The notes beneath the pieces were generated by a model. The model had not been told where the DNA came from. It saw only the letters and a list, made by a program, of their open reading frames with translations, and made no database searches. A DNA stretch of 64,000 nt, taken from positions 38,727-102,726 of the IMG/VR virus record IMGVR_UViG_3300033233_000017. The stretch is one strand, 5' to 3'. Shown here piece after piece: positions 4,834-41,283 of this stretch. Positions within the stretch are counted from its first letter, which is position 1. Each line of letters begins with the position of its first letter. The stretch comes from a virus. The position numbers and the translations under genes were made by a program.

Positions 4834-7800
4834 TTATTTGCGCGGAGGTTCAACTACTTTTTTGAACCGTACATCTGGCGCATTTCCTCCGCGAAGGATT
4901 TTGGCCCTTTCTCTTGAAAGACTTCGGCTAGGTGGTTGACCCGAGCCTGCTTTGCGAACTGCTCCTTCGCCTGCGCCTTGGCTCGGTTCACTGCCTCCTT
5001 CGGCCACGTTATGCTGTCTTGCGAGGATTCCGGATCGGACTCTTGGGCTGGCATACCTGTAGAAATCATAGACCCTCTCTCCGTGGTGTTCAAAGACTTT
5101 CTGCAACATATCGGACATCAGGGAAATGTCTTCCTCCAACGTCAACCCCAGACGGGCATAGCCACCAGACATCCCATCCGCCATCACTTCTCGGACCAGC
5201 GTGTCCGGGTCTTGCTCGTACTCGTAGCGTTCTACCAACCGCTGCGATGCGCGGCGGTAGAGCGGGTGGATTTCCATGGACTCGTAATTAAACATCTTCC
5301 CGATGGCCGCTTGATGGCGGTGCTGTATCTCATGCCGGAAAGCGCCCTTGACGCTTGCCAGCGTTTGCCCTTCCGTTGTGACCATGACAAACCCGTGCTC
5401 GTCGTTGGTATTGATGGCGTGGTCGATAGCATCGGCCAACCGGATGAGCGCGCTCCGGGACTCGCTGGTCATGTTCGGGTACGGATCTTCCCGCAGCAGA
5501 CCAGAGAGAGACGTGGCATCTTCGGCAGTGATGTGGACACCGCCAAAGCTCGGAACCGGTGTCTCATTGATGTGGGAGAACGCGGCGCGCAGCACCCGCA
5601 TGGCAGCGTCATTAATGAAGAGATGCGCAGGCTTCGCTCCTGCCCTATCGCGGTAGCGGAAGTCGGCTTTCCCAAAGATGTCCATGGGCTTGTCGGTCGG
5701 AAGGACCGGGTTGTCGTTAAGGCCGGACGGAGCGCGCAGCGCCTTCGGAGGCTCCGCGACGGCGGTATTGCCGGCCTTCTGGAACTGCGGTTGCCCCTCG
5801 TAGAGCACGGACTTGCGCATCTCAGGAGTGATGTCGAGGGAGTGGAGTTCGTGGTATCTTGCGGGAACTCCTTTCATCCCCACTACGTCTTCTCCAGGGA
5901 CGCGCACGGTCCCGACTTTCGCTCCCCACTTCTTAGCGTACTTGTTGGCGTAGGCGGGGAGGATCTTATCGTAGAAACTAGCCATCCCGGAGCCACCAAC
6001 CTTCAGGTCTAGGCCAGAGTATTCCAATGCTTCACCTGTTGGTTTTGTTTGCGCGTCAGTGACGATCTTTTCTGCCAAGTCCTTCGGTTCGAATGTGCCG
6101 GGAACGATGTCATAGTCGCCTGACCCCTTGGGAGTGTAGGAAAGCGTAAATTTTCCATCACTCTGCTTCCGCGCCAGTACGGAGTCAATCTGTTTCGACA
6201 AGTCGTATCGTTCTGCCTGCTCGTAGTGCCGCACCGCTTCCGCGTGCTGGTCCCATATCTGCTGCACCTCTGCTGCGGGTGCTCCGTTGCGCTGTCGCCA
6301 TTGGGCTTCGCGCTCCAACCTCCGCGCTTCTTCCGCCCACTCGGGTCCAGTCTTCCCGCCCGCTGGCGAGTGTGTGATCTCCTTGACTTCGACCGCGTTC
6401 TGCTTCAAGTAGTCGAGCACTTCGGCCTTGGAGACCTTCTGGCCTTTCTTGCTCTCCAGCCAGTCGTCCAGCCCGGTCCACTTCGCTTCATCGGCTTTTC
6501 CGAATTGACGCACGATGTTTGTGACCTGCTCCGCAGACGCAGCAGCAGGCATCTTCGCCTCCAGAGCTTTGGCGGTCGGAGAGAACCACATGGGCGCGAG
6601 TTGCGGCGGTTCTTCCACCGCTTCGGTAGTCTTCTGGAAACTTGGACCGCGAACGGGAGGCTTCGGTGTCTCTTGTATGCGCGCAGACGTGGGCGATTTC
6701 ATCACCTCGTTAGTTACGTCAACCGCGTACGGTCCTTCCGCATCATGCTCAATCCTGAGTACGCGAGCAATGTTGGATGCGGGGATGGGTGTTTTGGATG
6801 AAAACTCGCCAGCACCTTCATGCACCAACGAAGCGGTTTTTTTTACCTCAAGCAGATAACCGGGCTTAGCGATGTAACTGGTCGCGATGCTTGGCCTATC
6901 ACTAAAAAACGTAAGCCCCGCGTGCTGCGTCTTCTTTAGCCTCGCTGCTGTTTCACCACTGGATTCGATTTTCCCGGATGACAGGATCTTTTGAAGTTCC
7001 GCCTCTCCTTCAGATCCGCGATACACGTATCCGTCTTGTAGGCGAGAATGCCCATAGAACGCAATCTCCGCCGTGTTCGTGTCGGGCTCCTTGGCTGATG
7101 GGCGCGCATACGCCTTCCCGCCTAGCGGGATCTCGACCTTGTTGCCGTCCTTTCCCGAGAACTTAACCCGGTCGATGGTGACGTTCTTTCCGTCCAGCGC
7201 GGCGCTTCCGGCGTACTGCTCTCCGCGCCCCGGCTTCACGTAGGCCACGGTCACGTGCGGCTTGTAGGTGGGGTGCGTGTCGGTGACTTCGAGCGCTCCG
7301 GAGATCTTCTTGTTGAGACGGCGCAGGTCCGGCGAGTCCACGTCGATCTTCACCACGTCGGCGTCGTCGTTCTGGGACAGCGAGGTCTTCCCGAGTTTTA
7401 CCGTGACGGGTGGCTCGTTCGCGAGTAGCGCCCGCACTTTGGCCGGATCGCTCGTGTGCAATCCATACTTCACCGTAACGTGCGGCTCAGTCTCCCGACC
7501 ATTGGCTGCGAGGTCCCTTCCGGGAATCTTGGCTGCTTCCGCCTTGACCTTGGACGCAAGGGACGCGGGCAGGTTCACCTGCGTCGATGAGAACTCGTGC
7601 CGCCACGGCTCGCTCTCCATCTCTTTGGACGGTGGTTCGCCAGTCCGCTGGAAGCGCGGTGGCGTTCTGGTGCGACGGTGCCACATGCTCTGCGAATCCC
7701 GAAACTTGGTGCCAAGTTTGATCCCGGCGTCGGAGAGCATGTCACCGTACTTCTGCTGTTCCGACTGCGGGAAGCCTGCGATCACTTTGCCGTTCTTGGC

Positions 7801-10800
7801 GGTATGGATCGGCACCCCGGTGATCTCCGCCACTTTTTCAGCGTCGTTCCCGAAGAACTCGATGTAGTCTCCGTAGATGGAGCCGGTCAACGTCTGCTGC
7901 TTACGCCCGGTCGATTCGAACTTTCCGCCGCTCGCCTCCGATGCCAGATACTCCCTCAATGCGTCCTGCTCGTCCACGCCGTAATACGCGCCGACGTCCA
8001 TCTTTTTCGACTCGCCCTGTACGATGCTGGACAGGGTTTTCATCTTCTCGGAGAAGACTTTGGCATTCCATCGGTCGATGGGGGTGTCTGCAAACAGGTA
8101 AAAGACGCGGCCCTTGGACTCGGTAGTCATGCGCCAGATGCGGCCCAGTAATTGCACATTGGACATCGCATCGAACTCAGGCGTCATCACGACCACCGTG
8201 CGCGGGTGTTTCCCGGTAGTGTCGTCCAGATTGATACCGGTGCCACCCGATTTCGCGGTAGCGATCACGATGTCGGCTTCGTTGTCCTGGAAACGGCGCA
8301 TAGCCTCTGCGCCCTTCTCTTCCGCGCCTCCGTGGAGTTCCGCGATCCGGCTCGGGTCGATCCCGGCCTTGATGAGTTCCGCCTTGAGCGTCTTCGCGGT
8401 GCCTTCGGAGGAGTAGATCACTTCTTCCCACTCGTCCACGACCTCGCCATACTGGTTGCGGAGCTTGTGCTTGTTCTTAACGTCAGAGCGATTCACCCGG
8501 CTCGTGAAGATGATGACCTTGCGACCTTCGGCTAGTTCCTTCTGCGCCAGTTTGATGGTGCTCGCCACTTTGAACGGTTCCTGCTGGCGGCGCAGGTGCA
8601 TCAGGCGCACAGCCGGATTTGGCGTCATCATCGCTTTGTCGATGAAGTCCAGGTCCGCCTTGCCCTCTGCGGGGAGTACCATGTTCAGAGCGTGGATGTC
8701 GAGACCGTCAAGGGAAATCTCCTCTTTGCGCATCTTGCCCTGCTCGATCATGCGACCGAACAGCGCGGTGAAGTTCTTGCGGACTTGCGCCGGGGTGAAC
8801 CCTTTTCGAATCTCCCAACGGGTAAATGTCTGTCCCTTGGAGTTCTCGTGTTCCACCAACTCCATGCCCAGTTTGGCGATGGCGGCAGCTTCCGACTGGC
8901 CTTCCAGGATGCCGATGCGCTTCAGATAACCGATGTGATAGGGTTTGTCGGCAGGCGTGGCGGTGAGGAATAGGACGCCGTGGGCATCGTCGGCCAACCG
9001 GGTGATGATCCCAGAGCGGGCAGACGATCCGATGTTCTTGGCCGCGTGTGACTCTTCGCTAATAAACACCGTGTTCTTGTCCACGGGAGCGGTGCCGCAC
9101 TTCTCGTACGTGGAGATGTAGAACTTTCCCGGCTCAAACTTAGTGATGCCCTCGTGGTAGCGGATCGGGGCGATGCCGTACTCTTTGAGCCAGAATTCGT
9201 AGGAGCCCGTGGGCCAATCCGAGTTCGGTTTGGGGAACTTGAATACCTCTGCCGGACCGGCCAGAAAGACGGCTTTTCCTTGATCGAGGAAATACTTGGC
9301 GACGGCGGCGGAGGCCGGCGTCTTGCCGGAACCCGTGCCGCCCGCGTTCAACATCCCTCCGCCAGTCTCGATCTCCTTGGCGGCGGCGGCGGCGGCTTGT
9401 TCTTGATGCGGAGCCAGCGTTGCGGTCTTTGGCTTCGGAACGCTGGAAGCGCCCAGAGTCGGAGGGTTCCCGACCGTGATTATTTGCTTGGATATTTTTC
9501 CAGTTGGAAGTTCTTGTGAGCGTCCGGATGCTGCTTCATTATTTGCAGCATGTCCATCAGCGCCAGATCCTCCATGGAGGGGCCTTCCGAGTCCCAGATC
9601 TGCTCCGGCGTTGGGTTGCGGATGACCCGGACCTGCTCCTGTGGCTGGCTTGGCGGTTCCGAGCGTGGGCGGTGCGACCGGGGCGGATTGGGCATTTTCA
9701 GCATATTTGGCCTTCAGGTCTGGAAACGCTGCGAGGTGGCGCTGGAGGCGCTCATCCCCGAGCGAAACCTGCTTACTTTCGATGATACTCTCGATCTGTT
9801 GCTTGTACCATCCCTTAAAGAAGTCCTGAAACTCCTCGATGTCGGACTTCGACATCGAGGCAGGGAATTCAAACGGAGGCGGTTCACCCCCCCCGTTCTG
9901 CTGGAAGTTGCCTACTTTTTTTTTAGCCTTCGCCGCTTGGAACTGTTCCAGCGCCTTCGCCATGACTTCATCCGGGGTCATGTCGAGGATGGTCTTGGGG
10001 GCATCGTTGCCCGAGCGGGGAGCCTCTTTCTTAGGCGGTTCTGCGGGTTGGATCACCTCCTTCGAGGCTGGCCCGCTCGGGACTTTCTGGGACGCCTTCG
10101 GCGGCGCTGCTACCGCAGGCGCAAGGGCTTTGAGAATAGCTGAGACGTGGGCATCAGCGATGCGTTCCGCATTTTTCGCACCTTCTTCGGTGAATGACGC
10201 TACTCCCGCACGCTCCATCTCCGCTCGGACCAACTGGCGCTGGTCATAGCGCGGGTTGCCAAAATGCTTCGCGGTCTTCTCCGTGGGCCACTTATCTACG
10301 GGGATGGTGATAGTCGGATAGGTCTTTCCCGCTAACCTAAGACTTCCCGTGATGACACCATTCGCAACCTTGATTGTGACTGGGAAATCGCGAACAGACT
10401 TGTCTGTGACCTTAACTGGTACTGCCTTCGCAGGCTTGGGTGGTCCCGCTACCGATGGCTTGGCATTCTCAGGCGCGGGTGGCTCTTTCGAGTAGATCGG
10501 CTTTACCACCAACTCCCCGCTCAGTTCGGGACTCTTCGCCTCAATCGGATTGTCGATGGCGAATGCGGACGCTTCTGTTCTCGCTCGGAGAACCTCCGTT
10601 CCGCTCTGTTGGTTGCTCGCTTCAAACCGCACAACCCGGTCCATAGATGGGTGAATCAGTACCGCGCCGTTCTCCGTTTCGGCACGCAGCCATCCGGTTG
10701 GTTTGCCGTGAATATCCAGAGATGAGGTCGCGCGATCCCGAAGAATCTCGATGGGGTCAACATATCGACCCAGAACTTCCTTGGCAGTCCCGTCCTTCCG

Positions 10801-13800
10801 CCCTGATTTGACGCTGGGAGGCTCGATTGATTTCGGGGATGGATTCGGCGTCTCGGTTGGTGAGAGATCCAGCGCTTGCTGCGGTTGTTCGTCGATGGGC
10901 TTACCGGAGAAGAGGGCGCTGCCCTCCATGTCCGGAGCGGCCACTCCCTGCTTGGCGTTTAACTCTGCTTCGAGTTGGGCTTTTTGGATGGAGGCTGATC
11001 GGGACTCATTGGCGCGTGCGTTTTCTGTGGCGACAGCTTCGGGGTTCCTTCCGAAGAGATCTCCCACCCCGGAGCCAGTCCCAGTTTCACTGCTCGGACT
11101 ATCGACGCCAGCACTTGTTCCTTTTCCTCCGCTGAGAGTTTCTTGTAGGGCCTCTCGGACGCGCTCATAAGTCCGGGCGCGGACTTCGGCTGGTTTTCCG
11201 CCTTCGGCAAGTTCACGTGCTCCCTCCTGCAATGCTTCGTTGATGGGGCCGGCGCTGTAGGCTAGTCTACCGTATAGCTCCTGCGCTTGCCGCGCCGATT
11301 GCGCGACTTCGGCGTTCTTGTCGGTTTGGATGACGTTACCGGATTCGCTCAACCGCTTCGCAGACGCTTCCGAGGAGACCGCGCCGAACAGTTTCTTCTC
11401 CTGCAAGATGCGCTGCTTGACGTAATCTGATAATCCAGCCATCTCGGGAAGGAGATTCACCGTGGCCTCTTCCGTCCCGAACAAGGTCTCTTCCGACTTC
11501 GTTTTCTTGGGCGCACCTTTGGCGAGTTTGATCAGCTCGACCAATCCCCGATTGGTGACGTCGGGACGCTCGGACAGTAGCTTTACCAACGCTTCCTGCG
11601 CCGGATGGTTGTCTCCCAACATGTTCCCGATGATGACGCCGCGCGCCACTGTGATCTCTTCGTCCACGATCTGACGGAATATGGGGTCGGTCAACTTCGA
11701 GAGCGCCATGCCCTCGCCTGCTTTGGACTCGCGCAGGGTTAGACCGCGCTGCGCTAGGTCCGCTGGCGTCAGGTTCGAGTCGCGGAACAGTTTCGCGGCG
11801 TCTATGGCGCTTCCGCGCCCTTCTCCGATATTCATGAGCGCCCCGGCGACACGCGCCGCTTGCGGCGTCTTCGCGTCGTCGAGGTACTGCGCCCGCATGT
11901 TCTCTACTCCGAGGCGCTTGGCAAGTTGCAACCGATGATGCCCGTTTACCACGAAGGTCTTCTTCGCTACCGGGTCCCACCATAGCCAGATTGTGCCAGC
12001 TTGCTTGGGGTCCCAGACCGAGACGTCCCGCAGTAGGTCCGTGGTGCCGCCTTGCCCGATGGCGTCCATCTTGTACTGAAAGCGATTCGGATCGGCTTCG
12101 ATGTCCGCCGTGGGCACGATCACCGAGTCCTGATCGGATGGATATGCCGGACGTCCGTTCGGAAGCTTGGAAGTAGGCGTTGCGGTAGGCGCTACAACCG
12201 GCGCTACAACCGGCGCTACAACCGGGGCTACAACCGGGGCCGCTGGAGCGGGAGGAATAGTTTGGGCAACAGGAGCGGCGGCGGGGGGAACGCCGATGCC
12301 GCTGGAGGCGGGAGCGGCGATGCTAGTGCTGCCCAAGGCCGGGGGTTCGGAGGCTGCGCGGATCTGGAGTTCCCGTTGAGGTGGCTCGGCCCCCTGCGGG
12401 GACATCACCACGCGACGTTGATCTTGCCGCAGTTGTTCGAGTTGCAGATTAAGAGTATCCGGAGTCTCCGGAGTGGTGGAAAGCGCGGCGCTCTTGGGAG
12501 CAGCAGCGGGCGGTTCCGCAACCGGAATTCCCATGTCCGTCAGGACCGCCTTGTAAGCGCTCTGCGCTCCCAAGCTTTCCGCGCCGTGCAGGGCGACTTC
12601 GTAGCGATAGCGCAGGCCCAACGGTAGACCGTCGATAGTGGCCTGAATCTGCTGCTGGATCGCGTCGTGCTGTTGCCGCAGTTCTGGCAGGTTGGTCACG
12701 GCACCACGCCGCAATGTTCCTTCGCGGATCTGCTCAGACAGCGGTTGCGCCTGGGCTTCCAGCGCCGCGATCTTCGCCTGGACTTCCTGTACCTGCGGAT
12801 CAGCCTTGGCGTTTGGCGTAGCCTGCGGTTCCGGTTGCTTGCTCACCACCTCAAACGATTTCACTTCCGGCGCTCGTGGCGTGGAGATCGGCGGCATCGG
12901 GATCGCCGGTCGCGCTGCTTCCGCAGTGGCGGGAGCGGCAGGCGGCGGAGATACCACCTCGAATGGCTTTACCACGGGACGGTGAGCTACCAGGAGCGGA
13001 GTTCCTGCCGCTCCTGGTAGAAGCGGTGTCCCTGCGGGCGCGGACGGCATGGCGGGCTCCGGAGTCGCCGTCTGCGGCTCTCCTGCCGGTGGGAGCATGT
13101 TGAGGTTTTCCGGACGCCGCGCGGTGGGCCTTCCTATTCCCCGCGTGGGCACCCCTTCCATCACCACGCCAGCGGCAATCGAGGCTGGCAGTAGCAGGTT
13201 CAGCGCCGTCTCGATGTCTTTCTGGTACGACTCCAGTTCCTTTCCTTGGCCCTTCAGCGCCTTGGACTGCCGGCGCGCTTCGATCCCGCCTTCGAGTCCC
13301 ATGGCGGTGAAAGCCACCTGGGGACCGCGCCTCAGAGCTTCGTAGATGGCGTCCCGCACAATGGGGACACGGTTCAGGGTTGCAGCAACACGTGGAGCTT
13401 GTACCAGTTTCCCCAGTGCGCCAACTACGCCGGTCGCGGCAAGCATGGAGGCAAGGCCGTCCGCTGATACGAACCCGAGCGCCGTGCCGAGGAACGCGTT
13501 GCGCCACGCTTCCGGCTTCGTCTTGGGCGCGGGAAGGTATCCACCATAGCCACTCCACGCGCCTTCCATGACTTTCTGCGCTTCGGGAGATCCGAGGTCA
13601 GCCTTTCCCCACTCCGCGCCGGAGAGCGCCACACCTTTCTCGCGGGCGGGCATTTGCGCGAAACCTTCGACCGACTGCTGGATACGCTGCTGTACGCCAG
13701 GGTCGAGCATGGCGTCCTGCGGCGGCGCGGGCACCTTGGGCGGGTTCGCCGCGATCTGACGCGCGCCTTCCGAAATCTGCGTGTCCGCGTTGGCGTATGC

Positions 13801-14181
13801 CTGCGCCAAGGGGATCGGAGGTTGCGCGCCGGGAACTCCAGGAGCCTTCGGAACACCGAAACTACCGGAAGTGAGACGCCCGATCTCGTCGCTGGCCTGC
13901 TTCTTCGAGAGCTTCGGCGGCGCGGGTGGCGCGGGTGGCTCCATGCTCACCGCGACCGGAGCAGTTGGCGCGGGAGTATGCGCGCGTACGTTGAGTTCCT
14001 GCTGTGCTTCGGGAAACTTACTGAACCAGAGTTGCCGTTTGGCCTCTTGGGGAAGATCAATGGCGTCGAACGAGTCGATGAATTGTCGGCGGTCCTGCGC
14101 TCCGTAGAACGCTTTCCAGGCTTGGTCCTTGACCTCCATCGGAACCGCTGTACTGTCCAGGATCGACTTGATATCGGGCAT
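4834..14181 (-). CDS. 3115-aa large polyvalent (DarB/strawberry-notch-like) virion-delivered protein
   Basis: ParB-like domain (VVNGHHRL, ~11150-12125); SF2 helicase (GGTGSGKT, SEESH, FLTATP, SGGTGINL, QLLGRIWR; ~8000-9425); MutS-I-like (GDYIEFFGNDAEKVA..AGFP, ~7720-7880); 2H phosphoesterase (two PHVT, ~7120-7600); ART-like (~6700-7030); LPD-type domain (~5790-6595); zincin HEIQH (~5320-5334). Last gene after the ejection proteins. Confidence 0.85.
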   Translation of the reverse strand: MPDIKSILDSTAVPMEVKDQAWKAFYGAQDRRQFIDSFDAIDLPQEAKRQLWFSKFPEAQQELNVRAHTPAPTAPVAVSMEPPAPPAPPKLSKKQASDEIGRLTSGSFGVPKAPGVPGAQPPIPLAQAYANADTQISEGARQIAANPPKVPAPPQDAMLDPGVQQRIQQSVEGFAQMPAREKGVALSGAEWGKADLGSPEAQKVMEGAWSGYGGYLPAPKTKPEAWRNAFLGTALGFVSADGLASMLAATGVVGALGKLVQAPRVAATLNRVPIVRDAIYEALRRGPQVAFTAMGLEGGIEARRQSKALKGQGKELESYQKDIETALNLLLPASIAAGVVMEGVPTRGIGRPTARRPENLNMLPPAGEPQTATPEPAMPSAPAGTPLLPGAAGTPLLVAHRPVVKPFEVVSPPPAAPATAEAARPAIPMPPISTPRAPEVKSFEVVSKQPEPQATPNAKADPQVQEVQAKIAALEAQAQPLSEQIREGTLRRGAVTNLPELRQQHDAIQQQIQATIDGLPLGLRYRYEVALHGAESLGAQSAYKAVLTDMGIPVAEPPAAAPKSAALSTTPETPDTLNLQLEQLRQDQRRVVMSPQGAEPPQRELQIRAASEPPALGSTSIAAPASSGIGVPPAAAPVAQTIPPAPAAPVVAPVVAPVVAPVVAPTATPTSKLPNGRPAYPSDQDSVIVPTADIEADPNRFQYKMDAIGQGGTTDLLRDVSVWDPKQAGTIWLWWDPVAKKTFVVNGHHRLQLAKRLGVENMRAQYLDDAKTPQAARVAGALMNIGEGRGSAIDAAKLFRDSNLTPADLAQRGLTLRESKAGEGMALSKLTDPIFRQIVDEEITVARGVIIGNMLGDNHPAQEALVKLLSERPDVTNRGLVELIKLAKGAPKKTKSEETLFGTEEATVNLLPEMAGLSDYVKQRILQEKKLFGAVSSEASAKRLSESGNVIQTDKNAEVAQSARQAQELYGRLAYSAGPINEALQEGARELAEGGKPAEVRARTYERVREALQETLSGGKGTSAGVDSPSSETGTGSGVGDLFGRNPEAVATENARANESRSASIQKAQLEAELNAKQGVAAPDMEGSALFSGKPIDEQPQQALDLSPTETPNPSPKSIEPPSVKSGRKDGTAKEVLGRYVDPIEILRDRATSSLDIHGKPTGWLRAETENGAVLIHPSMDRVVRFEASNQQSGTEVLRARTEASAFAIDNPIEAKSPELSGELVVKPIYSKEPPAPENAKPSVAGPPKPAKAVPVKVTDKSVRDFPVTIKVANGVITGSLRLAGKTYPTITIPVDKWPTEKTAKHFGNPRYDQRQLVRAEMERAGVASFTEEGAKNAERIADAHVSAILKALAPAVAAPPKASQKVPSGPASKEVIQPAEPPKKEAPRSGNDAPKTILDMTPDEVMAKALEQFQAAKAKKKVGNFQQNGGGEPPPFEFPASMSKSDIEEFQDFFKGWYKQQIESIIESKQVSLGDERLQRHLAAFPDLKAKYAENAQSAPVAPPTLGTAKPATGAGPGHPQPNAGADLGLGRPLHGGSGADGHAANNEAASGRSQELPTGKISKQIITVGNPPTLGASSVPKPKTATLAPHQEQAAAAAAKEIETGGGMLNAGGTGSGKTPASAAVAKYFLDQGKAVFLAGPAEVFKFPKPNSDWPTGSYEFWLKEYGIAPIRYHEGITKFEPGKFYISTYEKCGTAPVDKNTVFISEESHAAKNIGSSARSGIITRLADDAHGVLFLTATPADKPYHIGYLKRIGILEGQSEAAAIAKLGMELVEHENSKGQTFTRWEIRKGFTPAQVRKNFTALFGRMIEQGKMRKEEISLDGLDIHALNMVLPAEGKADLDFIDKAMMTPNPAVRLMHLRRQQEPFKVASTIKLAQKELAEGRKVIIFTSRVNRSDVKNKHKLRNQYGEVVDEWEEVIYSSEGTAKTLKAELIKAGIDPSRIAELHGGAEEKGAEAMRRFQDNEADIVIATAKSGGTGINLDDTTGKHPRTVVVMTPEFDAMSNVQLLGRIWRMTTESKGRVFYLFADTPIDRWNAKVFSEKMKTLSSIVQGESKKMDVGAYYGVDEQDALREYLASEASGGKFESTGRKQQTLTGSIYGDYIEFFGNDAEKVAEITGVPIHTAKNGKVIAGFPQSEQQKYGDMLSDAGIKLGTKFRDSQSMWHRRTRTPPRFQRTGEPPSKEMESEPWRHEFSSTQVNLPASLASKVKAEAAKIPGRDLAANGRETEPHVTVKYGLHTSDPAKVRALLANEPPVTVKLGKTSLSQNDDADVVKIDVDSPDLRRLNKKISGALEVTDTHPTYKPHVTVAYVKPGRGEQYAGSAALDGKNVTIDRVKFSGKDGNKVEIPLGGKAYARPSAKEPDTNTAEIAFYGHSRLQDGYVYRGSEGEAELQKILSSGKIESSGETAARLKKTQHAGLTFFSDRPSIATSYIAKPGYLLEVKKTASLVHEGAGEFSSKTPIPASNIARVLRIEHDAEGPYAVDVTNEVMKSPTSARIQETPKPPVRGPSFQKTTEAVEEPPQLAPMWFSPTAKALEAKMPAAASAEQVTNIVRQFGKADEAKWTGLDDWLESKKGQKVSKAEVLDYLKQNAVEVKEITHSPAGGKTGPEWAEEARRLEREAQWRQRNGAPAAEVQQIWDQHAEAVRHYEQAERYDLSKQIDSVLARKQSDGKFTLSYTPKGSGDYDIVPGTFEPKDLAEKIVTDAQTKPTGEALEYSGLDLKVGGSGMASFYDKILPAYANKYAKKWGAKVGTVRVPGEDVVGMKGVPARYHELHSLDITPEMRKSVLYEGQPQFQKAGNTAVAEPPKALRAPSGLNDNPVLPTDKPMDIFGKADFRYRDRAGAKPAHLFINDAAMRVLRAAFSHINETPVPSFGGVHITAEDATSLSGLLREDPYPNMTSESRSALIRLADAIDHAINTNDEHGFVMVTTEGQTLASVKGAFRHEIQHRHQAAIGKMFNYESMEIHPLYRRASQRLVERYEYEQDPDTLVREVMADGMSGGYARLGLTLEEDISLMSDMLQKVFEHHGERVYDFYRYASPRVRSGILARQHNVAEGGSEPSQGAGEGAVRKAGSGQPPSRSLSRERAKILRGGNAPDVRFKKVVEPPRK
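12191..12238. repeat. 4 x 12-bp tandem repeat (GCTACAACCGG[C/G]) encoding PVVA repeats
   Basis: Seen directly in the Pro/Ala-rich linker before the ParB-like domain. Confidence 0.9.
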
Positions 14182-32058: not shown

Positions 32059-33135
32059 TTAGAGCAGCGCGGTGCCCACCAGCTTGAAGCAGGTGCGCGG
32101 ATTCGGAACCAGCATGTTGCCAGCGAACAAGAACTGGCCTGCCAGATCGGGGTCATTCCGGCTGTCTTTGAAGCCAGTGAAGCCGAACTGCCACTTCGGG
32201 TTGTCGGTGATGTGAAGCTGAATGTAGTTGGTATTCAGCCCGAGCATCATGCCGTTGGTGCCGTCCTGCGGCATGTACTTGTCCACCACCACGTCGGCCA
32301 CGCCGTTGAACCGGAAACTCTTGAAACCGACTTTGGCAACATCGACTTCACCCGGTCCGTAGTAGCGCTGGTTGGGCTGGAGCGCCTGCCACGTCTTGTT
32401 CCAGCCGGTCTGCGTGCCCACCATCATGTCGGGATAGTCGTTGCCGTACCACGCGGCACCGAAGGCGTCCTGAATGGTGTTCAGCGAGAACGTTCCGTAA
32501 GCGCGATTGACGAACGCATTCAAGCCCTGCAACGCGCTGTTGGGGGTCGTGGTCGTGGAGAACGTCAGTGCGCTCGGGAACAGATCGGCGCGAGTGATGC
32601 CGCCGACCGCCGCGAACGCCTTGTCCTGGTTTGCGCTGGTGGTGTAACTGCCGTTGCTCGAACCGTCGTCGATCCAGGCCAGTAGGCCGTCCAGATGCTT
32701 CGTGGTGGACAGCACCGTGCCCATGGCGGCGGTCTGCCCATCCCGGTAGATGGCCTGCGAGAGCAGTTTCGCCATCTTCATAGAGGCGTTCGCCATCTTG
32801 ACTTCGGCCTGAGAGAAAGCCGTGTTGCGGCCCCGGTTCAGGACGTCATCGACACCGTACAGCGTGACGTTGACGTAGTAGTACTTCATGTACACCTGAA
32901 CTGCGGTCTCGGTCTTCACGAAGGCCGTGTTGAAGGTTTCGCCTTTGGCGTATGCGTCACCGTTCAGTTCCGCATAGGTCAAGGGCTGTTGAATCAGCGT
33001 TCCGCCTGGGAACGCGATGCGGTTGCGCGCCAGCAGCCGGGTCAAAAGCGGCGACTGTTTGAAAATCACGTCAACCGTTTTTGGTTTAAGCTCCTGTTGC
33101 GTGAACGCATTGAGTTCGGTCAGAGCCAGTGACAT
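32059..33135 (-). CDS. major capsid protein (HK97 fold)
   Basis: 358 aa; VDVIFKQSPLL.RL, GG..IQQPL.Y, DGLL, GF....FNG..VVVD, GNMLV.NPR; follows the scaffold gene. Confidence 0.85.
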   Translation of the reverse strand: MSLALTELNAFTQQELKPKTVDVIFKQSPLLTRLLARNRIAFPGGTLIQQPLTYAELNGDAYAKGETFNTAFVKTETAVQVYMKYYYVNVTLYGVDDVLNRGRNTAFSQAEVKMANASMKMAKLLSQAIYRDGQTAAMGTVLSTTKHLDGLLAWIDDGSSNGSYTTSANQDKAFAAVGGITRADLFPSALTFSTTTTPNSALQGLNAFVNRAYGTFSLNTIQDAFGAAWYGNDYPDMMVGTQTGWNKTWQALQPNQRYYGPGEVDVAKVGFKSFRFNGVADVVVDKYMPQDGTNGMMLGLNTNYIQLHITDNPKWQFGFTGFKDSRNDPDLAGQFLFAGNMLVPNPRTCFKLVGTALL

Positions 33136-35439: not shown

Positions 35440-37326
35440 CTACACCTGTCCGTTCCGCTGCTCGCGCCCGAGTCGAGGATTGCGACCGCCCGCCAGCGCG
35501 ATGCCATCCTGATTCTGCTGCTTTAGCGCATCCAGCCATTTCTGCGCCTGCGGGATCTCCAGCACTTGATACAGGTACTCCAGCGGGATCAGCCCACGTG
35601 ACGCGAGCCCGATGGCGATCTGCTTCTCCCGGTCGCGTGCCCCGGAGTGCAGCGAACCCGGCGCGACGATCAGCGCGAAGTTCTTCCAGAATTCCCGCTT
35701 CGTCTCGTTGTTCGAACCTTCATAGGAACTGGGCCACAGTTTGTCCGGGTTGAAGTCGAAATCACTGTCAGCCACCCCGTTCTTTCCGAACAGTTTCATG
35801 CGCTGCGAGCGGGTGTAGAACTGGATTACGTTCGACATCGCTTGCACGCCCGTGTCCCGCAGGAAAGTCTCGATATAGCGGCCTTCCAACTTGCGTGAGG
35901 TCTGCATGGCATCGCGCATCTGTTCCAGCACGTCTCCACCCGGAACCTGCGCTTTCTTTCCCAACGCGGCCACGTCCAGATTCCCGGCCTGTTTCTCGTA
36001 TTCCGGGATGAGGAACTGAGCCAACATCTGGAACACGTAGGCGGGCAGTTGCGGCGGTTCCATGTACCGGATGTCCGCTTGCGGGTTGGCGTTCAAGCCT
36101 TCCAACCGCAGTTTTTGCCCCGGCGCGTCTTGCAGGAAGTTCTTCCAGGCAGGCAGTGGAACCGAACTGGCGCGACTGATAGCAGTGGGATTCAGCGCCC
36201 GCTTGACCATATCGAGCGTGCCGGCCACGATCTCGTTGATGGCGAGGTTCATGGGAATCAGATCGCGATACTTACTCAGCCCCCAGACGGAGTAGAAGAC
36301 CGGATTCAACCGAAGCATGGCGAATGGGTATTGCCCATGCCAGAAGGGATTAGGACCGTCGTACATCAGCCGTTTCCCGGCGAAGGCCAGCAACCGCTTG
36401 TAGGGATACAGGCGCTCTCCGGGAGCGACCGTATACCACCAGTCATGCTCGCTCGGAGAGAGGTACTGGTCGCGGACGACGACGCGGTGAGTGGACTCGT
36501 TGATGGATGGGTCGTCTACATAGAACTCCTGCCATTCGAGATTGCGGAACAAACCGGTTCCACCCATGGACATCTCCGGGGAAGCGTTCTGCTGTGCGAT
36601 CAACCGCTTCAGTCCGGGGTTCATACCGTTCCAGGTCAGTTCAGGGATGTGCCCAGGACGGACGTAGCGATTAGTGTCCGCCAGCGCCTCCATGCCAGAG
36701 ACGCATTCGCGTTCCAGACCGCGCGCCCGCATCCCGTATTTATTGATCGCCCAGGATAGCGGCTTCCAGGCGAGATAGCGCACCCCTGTGGATTCCTGGA
36801 TGTGGAACCCCGGCTGAATTAGCATGACCTGATCGGGGCCGCAGGGCAGCAGTTTCATGACGCCAGGACGCGCAGCGCCAATCTTCCAGAACGCGGTGCC
36901 CCACGCCATCGAGATGTCTCCGGTGGTGACCAGCGACAGGTCCGCATCGCTGCGTGCCCAGGAATCGTGAATGGCGAGATGAATGATCTTGGCGATGTCG
37001 TCGTACCCGGTCCCCGGTTGCGCGGTCACGTCAATCACGGGGCGCGTGTCCGTCAGCATAGAAAGCGTATCGAAGCGCGATTTGCCGATCTTGTTCTGGA
37101 AGAACCTGGATTTGTAGCGCGGGCGGTCCGCTCGATGGTAGTTTCCCTGGATATACTGGATGTACTGCTGGACGGAATTGATCTCGCTATTGAGGCGCGC
37201 GGTGCGCTGCGACTCCTCTATCGCGCCTTCCATCCAGATGCCCATTCTCCGGTGATAATCCTGCTCCAGATCCGGTTCTTGTGAGGCGTCTTCGGTATAC
37301 AGCGGTCCGCGCGGTAGGTAGTCCAT
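35440..37326 (-). CDS. portal protein (P22 gp1-like)
   Basis: 628 aa downstream of the terminase; TDTRPVIDV, WGTAFWKIG, NPFWHGQYPF, WGLS motifs. Confidence 0.85.
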   Translation of the reverse strand: MDYLPRGPLYTEDASQEPDLEQDYHRRMGIWMEGAIEESQRTARLNSEINSVQQYIQYIQGNYHRADRPRYKSRFFQNKIGKSRFDTLSMLTDTRPVIDVTAQPGTGYDDIAKIIHLAIHDSWARSDADLSLVTTGDISMAWGTAFWKIGAARPGVMKLLPCGPDQVMLIQPGFHIQESTGVRYLAWKPLSWAINKYGMRARGLERECVSGMEALADTNRYVRPGHIPELTWNGMNPGLKRLIAQQNASPEMSMGGTGLFRNLEWQEFYVDDPSINESTHRVVVRDQYLSPSEHDWWYTVAPGERLYPYKRLLAFAGKRLMYDGPNPFWHGQYPFAMLRLNPVFYSVWGLSKYRDLIPMNLAINEIVAGTLDMVKRALNPTAISRASSVPLPAWKNFLQDAPGQKLRLEGLNANPQADIRYMEPPQLPAYVFQMLAQFLIPEYEKQAGNLDVAALGKKAQVPGGDVLEQMRDAMQTSRKLEGRYIETFLRDTGVQAMSNVIQFYTRSQRMKLFGKNGVADSDFDFNPDKLWPSSYEGSNNETKREFWKNFALIVAPGSLHSGARDREKQIAIGLASRGLIPLEYLYQVLEIPQAQKWLDALKQQNQDGIALAGGRNPRLGREQRNGQV

Positions 37327-39030: not shown

Positions 39031-41283
39031 TCAGTACGCATCGTAGTCTGCCACCAAGTCAACGGAGTCTTCCAGCATCCCGCGCCATAGTTCCATGTCG
39101 GGATCTTCCGGACCGAGATTCTGGGTGGTGTCGGTCTCCGGATCGGCCTCTGCGTTCAAGTTGCGGTAACCGGTCAGCAGTAGAGAACCGCAGTGCGGGC
39201 AGTTTCCGACTTCGGCCACCGCCTTGGCCGGGAATTTGTAGTCGCAGGCGCAACACTGCATGATCCAGGGCGAGGTGTCCAAGTTCAGCACCCGGCGCAG
39301 CGGAACATATCCCAAGTTTGGGTCGAAATCGCTAAATCGCGCCGCCAGCAGCGCGATCATGCCTGCGGTGATCTCATCGTCCTTGAATCCCTTAGCGGCT
39401 TCCGGATGGCGGTCGTATTCGTCCTCCATGCGGTAGGTCTTCATCTCCTCGACTGCGTTCCTGGAATGGATTATCCACATGCCTGCCGTCAGCCAGCGGA
39501 TGGCGTGCTCCCGCAGTTTCGGCCGCGTGTTGACGGTCGAGAGCCAATGCACCGAGTTCAACTGCGGGCTGATCGAATCGGCGTTGATGCGCCGGTACAG
39601 GTTTTTGTACTGGCAGACCACGTGAGCGGTGTCACCACAGGATTGGTGATTGTTGTACTCGATTGCCAGCAGCGCCTCGTTGTACCAGCGCGCCAGCGCC
39701 ACGGCTTTATACCCCTGCTCGATGGCTCCCAGTTCATTGGAGCGGAACTTGGCGACCTGCTCATCCGCTCCGCCCCTGCGGTTTACCTTGTTCACCCACA
39801 TGCAGCAGTAATCCGACGCTCCACCGCCGCCGCCAGCCGGATCGACCCCGACTGCGTATTCGAAGTCCTCATTCGGAAGTTCCCAGATCTCCAGAGGTTT
39901 CACCTCGAATTCGTGCCGTCGATCACAGTCCTCCTGAATGCAGCGTTCCGTTCGTGGGTTGAAGGCGTGGAAGCGGCCCTGCTTGTCCAAGTCCCCGCGC
40001 ATGATCGGATCACGAATCGTTTGCGTCACGTGACGCATAATGGACTCGTTAAATAGTTGAATTCCAGAGACTTGGAACGCCTCTTCTGCGGAGACGCACT
40101 GTTCCTGGTGCAGCTTCTTCAGGGCCTCTTCGTCGTGCGCGTTGACCCGGCGCAGTTCCATCCAGCGCAGGAATCCGTCCGGCAGAACGTAAGAGCGCAG
40201 AGTGCCGTTGTTGCAGGTCGGGCAATTCAGTTCGGAGCGGTCCAGCCCGCCGATACGACGCTGGTGGAACTGCTGGCAATTGCTGTTATCGCAGCGCACC
40301 CACTCGCGCTCGACTCGCTCCCGCATCCCGGATTCTTCCTCTTTTACGGTCCAGCCATCGGGCGGTGCGGTGAAGTGGCTGCGGTCGAAGAACGACGGCA
40401 GGAATAGCGGCTTCCAGTCGGCGCGGCCATCTGCTTCGAGTTCCATATTATTGCGCCACAGCAGATGCGCGTAGCGCCCCGCGCCCTTGCCTGTGCTCTC
40501 CAGGAACCCGAATGCTTCCGGGTTGTCTGGGATGGCGTTGCGGATATCCTCCTCGATGATAGTACGGGCTTTCTTGTCTTCCCAGTCACAATGTTCGGAG
40601 CCATGGAAGGCCATATAGGTCTTCCCCTGAATCCCGGTGATCTTGTTCGCGCCATAGGCTTCTACCTGCGAATTCAATCCTGGGTCGCTGTAGCGGTCTT
40701 TCTGGTCGGTGTCGAAGATCAGCCCCTTTTTGAACTCTCGGCTCGCGCACTGCGGTTTCATCCACCACGGCATCCGGTCGTAGATGTGCTGCATGATGCC
40801 GAACAAGTAGGCAGCGTGGCCCGGATCGTAACTCACCACCACCGCGTTGACGTTCTTGAAGTACATCGTGCGCCACGCGATCATGCCTTCGATCAACGTG
40901 CTGCATCCGAGCGCCCGCGATTTAATGATCTGTACCTTTTGAGCGGCGTTGGGATACAGTGCCTTCAACCGAAGGTTGTATTCGAGGATGAGTTCCTGGC
41001 TCTCCCATAGGCTGAACAGCACGTCGCCGCGATCCTTCGTGGTGATCCAGAAATAGTTTTTGGCTGCGTAGTAGAAGTTGGCGCGGCAGAGTTCCAGTTG
41101 CTCGAAGATCTTGTCGCGTTCGGCTTTGACCAATTTGTCCCAGGAGTTGTGATCCGGTTCGTCGTAGTAGTCGATCATCGTGGAGATTCCGGGATCACGC
41201 ACCCATCGACGCGGAGCGCGCGGAGGGATGATCGCGGGCGGACGACTAATCCGAGAAGGTCCCGCCCAGTTCGGGCTACTCAT
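39031..41283 (-). CDS. terL: terminase large subunit
   Basis: Walker A IIKSRALGCST, Walker B FHGSE, coupling motif ESTGKG, nuclease motifs VGVDPAGG..SDY, AIEYNN and DDEI. Confidence 0.9.
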   Translation of the reverse strand: MSSPNWAGPSRISRPPAIIPPRAPRRWVRDPGISTMIDYYDEPDHNSWDKLVKAERDKIFEQLELCRANFYYAAKNYFWITTKDRGDVLFSLWESQELILEYNLRLKALYPNAAQKVQIIKSRALGCSTLIEGMIAWRTMYFKNVNAVVVSYDPGHAAYLFGIMQHIYDRMPWWMKPQCASREFKKGLIFDTDQKDRYSDPGLNSQVEAYGANKITGIQGKTYMAFHGSEHCDWEDKKARTIIEEDIRNAIPDNPEAFGFLESTGKGAGRYAHLLWRNNMELEADGRADWKPLFLPSFFDRSHFTAPPDGWTVKEEESGMRERVEREWVRCDNSNCQQFHQRRIGGLDRSELNCPTCNNGTLRSYVLPDGFLRWMELRRVNAHDEEALKKLHQEQCVSAEEAFQVSGIQLFNESIMRHVTQTIRDPIMRGDLDKQGRFHAFNPRTERCIQEDCDRRHEFEVKPLEIWELPNEDFEYAVGVDPAGGGGGASDYCCMWVNKVNRRGGADEQVAKFRSNELGAIEQGYKAVALARWYNEALLAIEYNNHQSCGDTAHVVCQYKNLYRRINADSISPQLNSVHWLSTVNTRPKLREHAIRWLTAGMWIIHSRNAVEEMKTYRMEDEYDRHPEAAKGFKDDEITAGMIALLAARFSDFDPNLGYVPLRRVLNLDTSPWIMQCCACDYKFPAKAVAEVGNCPHCGSLLLTGYRNLNAEADPETDTTQNLGPEDPDMELWRGMLEDSVDLVADYDAY

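Follow-up and report, generated by a model that had tools for sequence, protein, structure and literature searches.

Glu-Pro-Pro marks at the module borders of a giant phage polyvalent protein, a candidate signal for processing

Polyvalent proteins are regarded as the earliest weapons that a phage or plasmid brings into the cell; that they are cut into working pieces, and at which sites, has been a matter of prediction since 2017. Zincin-like domains embedded in these proteins have been proposed to process them, and DdrB of phage P1 is processed before packaging; the study that describes them names no junction motif or cut site for polyvalent proteins (Iyer, Burroughs, Anand, de Souza and Aravind 2017, PMC5512222). 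Here we describe P0001, a polyvalent protein of 3115 amino acids (aa) encoded on the minus strand (4834..14181) of a 64,000-nucleotide stretch of viral DNA ("the window", bases 38727-102726 of the 102,726-bp IMG/VR virus record IMGVR_UViG_3300033233_000017), in which a short Glu-Pro-Pro (EPP) mark recurs at the borders of modules. Coordinates are those of the window, and all features of P0001 lie on the minus strand. Polyvalent proteins and the idea that zincins process them are already known; what P0001 appears to add is the Pro-Pro border mark.

P0001 resembles the described polyvalent proteins in being one giant chain of unrelated modules that is encoded with virion genes and varies in module content among relatives; it differs in that its C-terminal HExxH module has no Pfam match, and in that neither the EPP or PPxP mark nor the N-terminal domain of its clade is present in PMC5512222. 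Specifically, P0001 unites a 2H domain and an SF2 helicase (both by Pfam) with a ParB-like region (by PHROG and by homologues), so that several unrelated biochemical domains stand in one phage polypeptide, which on sequence grounds makes it a polyvalent protein. Its 104 homologues are likewise multi-domain proteins, of 1.8-5.4 kaa, with polyvalent-type Pfam domains. P1 DdrB and DarA and the N4 virion RNA polymerase (vRNAP) are comparable as capsid-carried proteins of anti-defence or early function. DdrB in addition combines a ParB domain of the DdrB type with an HExxH domain at its C-terminus, and the ParB region of one relative, P0119, matches it. The difference is that DdrB carries another, small HELGH domain, unmatched by the profile of the P0001 module, and three PP but no EPP; it was therefore of no help as an anchor with a known processing site.

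The Pro-Pro endopeptidases PPEP-1, -2 and -3 (PPEPs), of MEROPS M34, invite a further comparison. Their consensus is XXPPXP, cut as xxP↓PxP, and sites are repeated in substrates encoded beside the enzyme (PMC10413326). The likeness lies in a zinc HExxH enzyme with repeated Pro-Pro sites, and the EPPxP form found in the relatives P0003, P0114 and P0117 fits XXPPXP; the differences are that bacteria secrete the PPEPs, which act on adhesins in trans and do not belong to a phage polyprotein, and that the P0001 sites mostly lack the P3′ proline. Similarity of the HExxH module to any solved zincin was found neither by sequence profile nor by fold search with a medium-quality model, and we take the parallel as a resemblance in possible mode of action, not as membership. 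A last comparison is with diproline pause motifs and proline-rich linkers, which also place Pro-Pro just outside domain borders (PMC5811046, PMC13456264). Diproline motifs of E. coli are enriched from −12 to −2 relative to domain starts and from −2 to +9 relative to domain ends, where they have been proposed to help co-translational folding (PMC5811046), and in human linkers clustered prolines come after complex domains (PMC13456264). P0001 differs from these in using one triplet 13 times in one protein, with a fixed Glu, an FQ[KR] element upstream and lineage variants.

Distribution of Glu-Pro-Pro in P0001

EPP occurs 13 times in P0001, where 1.5 copies are expected. The order of the residues matters, in that PEP occurs twice and PPE not at all, and Glu precedes 13 of the 32 PP dipeptides, which rules out plain Pro/Glu composition as the cause. 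The codons are mixed between copies (GAA or GAG, followed by CCA, CCG, CCT or CCC), which rules out a cause at the DNA level and indicates that it is the peptide and not the DNA that is under selection. In about 13,000 aa of other large open reading frames (ORFs) of the window EPP appears once, and among 290 open frames of at least 120 aa in the whole 102,726-bp genome, only that of P0001 contains it more than once. Translation starting internally, past the marks, was also ruled out, since the next Met is not preceded by any Shine-Dalgarno-like sequence; in just 3 of 12 cases is there a Met no more than 8 aa past the mark.

The original prediction had called attention to five copies of a longer motif, F-[QK] followed after a few residues by EPP. 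All five are present at the predicted coordinates, against 0.03 expected for F[QK]x2-9EPP, and protein shuffles never gave more than one. They are FQQNGGGEPP (site 1, aa 1426-1435, 9877..9906), FQRTGEPP (site 2, aa 2177-2184, 7630..7653), FQKTTEAVEEPP (site 3, aa 2515-2526, 6604..6639), the copy at the end of an unnamed module (site 4, aa 2800-2812, 5746..5784) and FKKVVEPP (site 5, aa 3106-3113, 4843..4866), which stops two residues short of the end of the protein. When the upstream element is written as [FY][QSK][KRQ], it occurs nine times in P0001, and six of these lie within 12 aa upstream of EPP (0.42 expected), a number of pairings reached in 0 of 20,000 randomisations. The sixth composite copy is IYSKEPP (aa 1229-1235; YSKEPP, aa 1230-1235, 10477..10494), which closes a module that P0024 has too. 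At sites 2 and 3 there is also a Pro-Pro just before the Phe (PP at aa 2174 and at aa 2508), giving PP...FQ[KR]...EPP, and they match site 4 in the form P-x-F-Q-K/R, which is thus present in three of the six composite copies.

Further EPP copies are found at aa 81-83 (13933..13941), past the N-terminal domain, in a stretch where relatives show EPP, DPP or PPKPP; at aa 556-558 (12508..12516), past a coiled-coil-like stretch; as a pair at aa 599-601 and 612-614 (12340..12387), in the linker upstream of the ParB-like domain; at aa 1120-1122 (10816..10824), 10 aa upstream of the module common to P0024; and at aa 1381-1383 (10033..10041). A coverage profile built from 181 BLAST blocks in 122 related proteins resolves the ParB-like region, the small module of aa 1130-1230 held in common with P0024, the helicase, the 2H domain, aa 2527-2812 and the HExxH module as blocks. 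Twelve of the 13 EPP copies lie outside these blocks or at their edges, in agreement with the predicted placement of the motif at module boundaries. The remaining copy, at aa 2256 within the 2H domain, is not conserved in relatives and is probably a chance occurrence. Ends of homology blocks fall within 15 residues of EPP in 30% of cases, compared with 12% for random sites (P = 0.03), a result driven by three junctions; at site 3, 36 homology blocks begin within 15 aa. An AlphaFold2 (AF2) model covering aa 2100-2830 becomes confident at aa 2191 (2H) and again at aa 2533 (the next-but-one module), and the EPP copies at aa 2182-2184 and 2524-2526 end 6-8 residues short of the next confident fold. 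The EPP mark is border-specific, is under selection as a peptide and, within this phage, is restricted to P0001.

Pro-Pro marks and the HExxH module in relatives

Conservation of the motif in homologues, by which the original prediction proposed to be judged, fails for the exact F-[QK]...EPP form, which is missing from about 100 of the 104; it holds for a broader mark, in that the closest clade keeps Pro-Pro at the same borders and at the C-terminus, and all copies, to judge from these proteins, change in step between lineages. The clade is marked by an N-terminal 72-aa domain (13966..14181 in P0001, ending in LWFSKF), whose profile matches P0001, P0003, P0004, P0005, P0114, P0116 and P0117 only, and six of these seven are the proteins richest in the Pro-Pro motif within the set. 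The domain keeps several Trp, Phe and Tyr residues and ends in LW-x-x-KF, and it may serve as a handle for loading or docking. The version of the mark differs from lineage to lineage: [ST]-EPP-x-P in P0003 (11 of 11 copies), [AV]-[ED]PP-[KR]-P-P in P0114 and P0117 (28 copies together) and PP-[KR]-PP in P0004 and P0005 (27 copies together). The versions stand at equivalent spots, namely after the N-terminal domain, before the module of the aa 2527-2812 type (PPPAPPFYSAL, to be compared with EPPQLAPMWFSP), and at the C-terminal end, which reads EPPRK* in P0001 and EPPKPPKTD*, EPPKAR* or PPPKPPR* in relatives. P0114 and P0117 are 57% identical overall, and PP is kept at 8 of 14 motif positions with flanks only 30-50% identical and lost at the other 6, which indicates that the copies are maintained yet turning over.

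P0001 and P0003 differ in module order and carry Pro-Pro marks at the borders in both arrangements. Near its C-terminus, P0003 has three tandem copies of FFQRK / FFKKE...EP, from which it follows that the FQ element is common to at least one relative. Compared with P0004 (aa ~2263-2290), P0005 (aa ~2383-2740) has an extra HExxH module that sits exactly between two copies of PPKPPQLNAK, and the difference reads as a clean gain or loss of a module at a repeated junction peptide. Beyond the clade, helicase-based scans recovered the contig of P0002 and six distant metagenome loci, all six without the motif. The N-terminal domain and the HExxH-module alignment found no match in an index of 5.8 billion proteins, and when IMG/VR was scanned with the same domain or with the gene next to that of P0001, none came up either.

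The FQ element of site 4 belongs to the widespread unnamed module (aa 2527-2812, 5746..6603), which has no Pfam match, is present in 64 of the 104 homologues and ends in GQPQFQK...EPP in P0001. Nearly everywhere in those 64 homologues the end of the module is ITPxMRxSVxxGQPLF[SQKN]; P0004 and P0005 stop a few residues past the GQPLF-type end, and at least eight homologues have a small HExxH domain within ~40 residues after it. The conserved GQPLF[SQ]-type end indicates that PQFQK at site 4 is a conserved domain end and not a free linker motif. A reading of GQPLF as a beta-clamp-binding peptide was dropped, as its spacing is off relative to the Qxx[LM]F pentapeptide. Some homologues carry the unnamed module twice.

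The C-terminal module of P0001 (aa 2813-3115, 4837..5745) contains HEIQH (aa 2950-2954, 5320-5334), the glutamate of EVMAD (aa 2998, 5188-5190) and site 5. It has 19 relatives among 1.84 billion representative proteins, and a protein atlas search returned unnamed clusters only. In an alignment of nine sequences, Glu139, His142 and Glu186 (RHExxH...E) never vary, and each of the two elements is predicted to be helical; HExxH on a helix with a downstream Glu on a later helix is the pattern of gluzincins. The AF2 model of the module is of medium quality, with a mean predicted local distance difference test (pLDDT) score of 69. A profile made from nine relatives finds 31 copies in 26 of 123 gathered proteins, and the module is present in five of the six proteins that are richest in the motif. 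[ED]PP is present at the N-terminal border in 10 of the 31 copies (137-183 residues before HExxH in the nine anchored by HExxH) and at the C-terminal border (+117 to +161) in 6 of the 31, with a background of 0.02 per 80 residues. Some of the copies with border [ED]PP are short stand-alone proteins.

Possible readings of the mark

Our preferred, though tentative, reading of the EPP mark is a border signal for proteolytic processing; that the mark is recognised, that recognition leads to cleavage, and which enzyme would act are all points that we infer. On this view P0001 is a chain of modules in which a short border signal, composed of an [FY]-[QSK]-[KRQ] end, 0-9 residues, and then EPP, closes every module. 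The signal would be read by a single partner, in all probability a protease whose cuts, inside the motif or next to it, give separate effectors, and the leading candidate for the cutter would be the C-terminal HExxH module of P0001 itself; the PPEPs offer the nearest working analogy. Cuts at the six composite sites would yield an N-terminal/ParB piece, a small module, the helicase with the MutS-I-like region, the 2H domain with the module after it, the unnamed module of aa 2527-2812, and the HExxH module. A signal read by one partner fits with codons that vary, with a mark that is restricted to one protein and with copies that change together from lineage to lineage.

A head protease was also sought in the genome. 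Peptidase_S78 (HK97-type) and ClpP had no match and S49 a single sub-threshold one; the search for S77 (T4 gp21) gave no match even in control genomes and hence is uninformative. PHROG scans of the portal-to-capsid genes recovered a scaffold-like protein only and no head protease. Besides the HExxH module, no other peptidase-like candidate turned up, with no whole-genome scan for HExxH proteins having been made. The Peptidase_S49-like match (E = 0.014, 11.5 bits) is in a 501-aa ORF outside the virion module (G000:C1:17969-19474, plus strand, locus L012).

Several points weigh against processing at the mark or against the HExxH module as its agent. X-Pro bonds are poor substrates for most proteases. 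Site 5, two residues from the C-terminus, cannot by its position be a productive cut site, and marks that stop 2-6 residues short of the C-terminus, like the tandem copies that relatives carry at a spacing of 10 aa, would be odd as cut sites. The HExxH module has no Pfam match and no PDB match by sequence or profile; Foldseek of its model against PDB and BFVD returned nothing at E ≤ 0.001, and VIA-align against 48,161 representative chains returned a best Z of 5.5, to unrelated chains. The original prediction of a zincin-like last module thus stands as to the invariant HExxH...E and finds no counterpart among known peptidases by sequence or fold, so that the assignment as a peptidase is made at the level of the motif; in three members the first His of HExxH is Glu (REExxH). 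Six of the [ED]PP copies at the N-terminal border belong to the conserved end of a DdrB-type ParB, QxSFF-EPPT-xxEAF (FFEPPTxxEAF), an element found away from the HExxH module too, in P0003 and P0113. P0003 (11 copies) and P0027 (8 copies) have the mark without any HExxH, and in ~13 proteins that carry the module but stand outside the clade the motif is not enriched. Furthermore, the motif-rich proteins form one clade, so that the link between mark and module is confounded with descent and the counts are not independent. Finally, the N4 virion RNA polymerase has a zincin-like domain, yet is packaged uncut (PMC5512222).

Some of these points would be met if the mark were a passive linker element that no partner reads, with prolines that stiffen and insulate the linker and slow the ribosome for module-by-module folding, and with FQ elements as domain ends. 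We regard this as possible, if somewhat doubtful. It is consistent with the position of EPP 6-8 aa before the next domain, with the Phe of site 4 being part of a conserved domain end, with the turnover of the motif (6 of 14 lost between P0114 and P0117) and with its presence in P0003 and P0027 without HExxH, and it needs no special account of the C-terminal and tandem copies. However, the other large multi-domain proteins of the same phage are essentially without EPP, and ~95 other polyvalent homologues do without the mark. Neither pausing nor stiffness predicts a strict Glu before Pro-Pro or uniform lineage flavours; the strongest stalling triplets are PPP, DPP, APP and PPG, not EPP (PMC5811046); and the linkers of the C-terminal half are short and not proline-rich, yet repeat PP...FQ[KR]...EPP. 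The lineage flavours, which fit co-evolution with one reader, would also suit marks that act as polyproline-II ligands for the capsid, the portal, an ejection component or the aromatic-rich N-terminal domain, and that serve to load, compact or thread the chain uncut. EPPxP and PP[KR]PP are of the PxxP type, and many, tandem and C-terminal copies suit a multivalent ligand; the motif follows the clade of an N-terminal domain with kept Trp, Phe and Tyr, and the gene stands at the end of the virion module. We nevertheless consider docking unlikely: the second proline pair is missing from most of the P0001 copies, docking leaves the FQ[KR] element upstream unexplained, and Pfam and PHROG scans of neighbouring genes found no SH3, WW or other proline-binding domain, no targeted search having been made.

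The original prediction had itself offered a scar of domain shuffling as the alternative, with modules swapped by recombination between repeated linker sequences and the motif left behind. One indel in relatives agrees with this, namely the extra HExxH module of P0005 flanked by PPKPPQLNAK copies; homology blocks end at marks, and P0001 and P0003, which differ in module order, have marks at the borders in both. The varied codons of the P0001 gene speak against it, since only three residues are constant among its copies and the codons differ, which leaves no DNA repeat to recombine on. The motif is also found at the very end of the protein and just past the N-terminal domain, places at which no exchange occurred, and selection on amino acids would not keep a scar, yet 8 of 14 copies are kept at low flank identity. 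We consider a scar very unlikely.

To return to processing, a more far-reaching form of it, which we regard as quite unlikely, would have the HExxH module found an undescribed peptidase family that cuts at or beside EPP as the phage counterpart of the PPEPs, with EPP, EPPxP and PPKPP as a co-evolving code that releases six to twelve effectors from an ejected polyprotein. Pro is present at P3′ in 11 of 11 copies in P0003 and in 23 of 28 in P0114 and P0117, and in 2 of 13 in P0001, a shortfall that counts against cleavage of the PPEP kind in P0001. A short, countable mark that changes in step between lineages would supply exact candidate sites and a candidate enzyme for the cutting of polyvalent proteins; should the mark prove to serve folding or pausing, P0001 would be an unusually clean natural case of diproline punctuation in a chain of 3000 residues. 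Either way, the mark delimits modules, two of them undescribed, the module present in 64 homologues and the HExxH module with 19 relatives.

Other modules and genome setting of P0001

Among the domains named in the original prediction, the helicase and 2H domains were confirmed by Pfam and the ParB domain by PHROG and BLAST; the MutS-I-like region has a weak Pfam match (E = 0.08), and the ART and LPD-type domains have none at E ≤ 0.1. The ParB-like domain (aa 680-1020, 11122..12144) matches phrog_21 with E = 1.3e-54 and has matches in P0002, P0005, P0006 and others. The SF2 helicase module (aa 1560-2100, 7882..9504) matches Helicase_C and ResIII and is 52% identical to P0002 and P0003. The 2H phosphoesterase (aa 2191-2356, 7114..7611) matches 2_5_RNA_ligase2 with E = 4.8e-9, is modelled by AF2 with pLDDT >90, and also matches Acb1 weakly (Pfam, E = 0.013). 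A PLxRFG domain, hinted at by the name of the homologue P0095, was ruled out, being not present in P0001.

The virion operon on the minus strand opens with the large terminase gene (39031-41283) and the portal gene (35440-37326), followed by a scaffold-like gene, the major capsid gene (32059-33135) and several large unassigned proteins, and the P0001 gene is its last ORF and the last large gene of the virion module. By this context, in which its gene closes an operon with terminase, portal, scaffold and capsid genes, P0001 is a candidate for a virion-delivered protein. The search for a close relative of P0001 in cultured phages (blastn and tblastn against GenBank phages) returned distant single-domain matches only. 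The nearest counterparts of the major capsid protein come from the Myxococcus phages Mx8 and Mx9, from a Bradyrhizobium phage and from Tunturiibacter phages.

Three further features of the P0001 chain lie outside its assigned domains. Downstream of the ParB region, the element ALFSGKPIDEQPQQALDL (aa ~1088-1110, window ~10850-10920) has counterparts in P0114 and P0117 (SPLFGGKPIDDSPxQGSL) and in P0005 (SPLFTGELV...QQGSLL), and looks like a separate short linear motif. The proline/alanine-rich linker upstream of the ParB domain contains a perfect tandem peptide repeat, (APVV)x4, within PAAPVVAPVVAPVVAPVVAPT (aa ~651-670, window ~12170-12230). Gly/Ala-rich hydrophobic segments, ALGFVSADGLASMLAATGVVGALGKLV and others (aa ~225-345, window ~13150-13510), are kept in P0114 and P0117, and could be membrane-inserting parts of an ejection protein.

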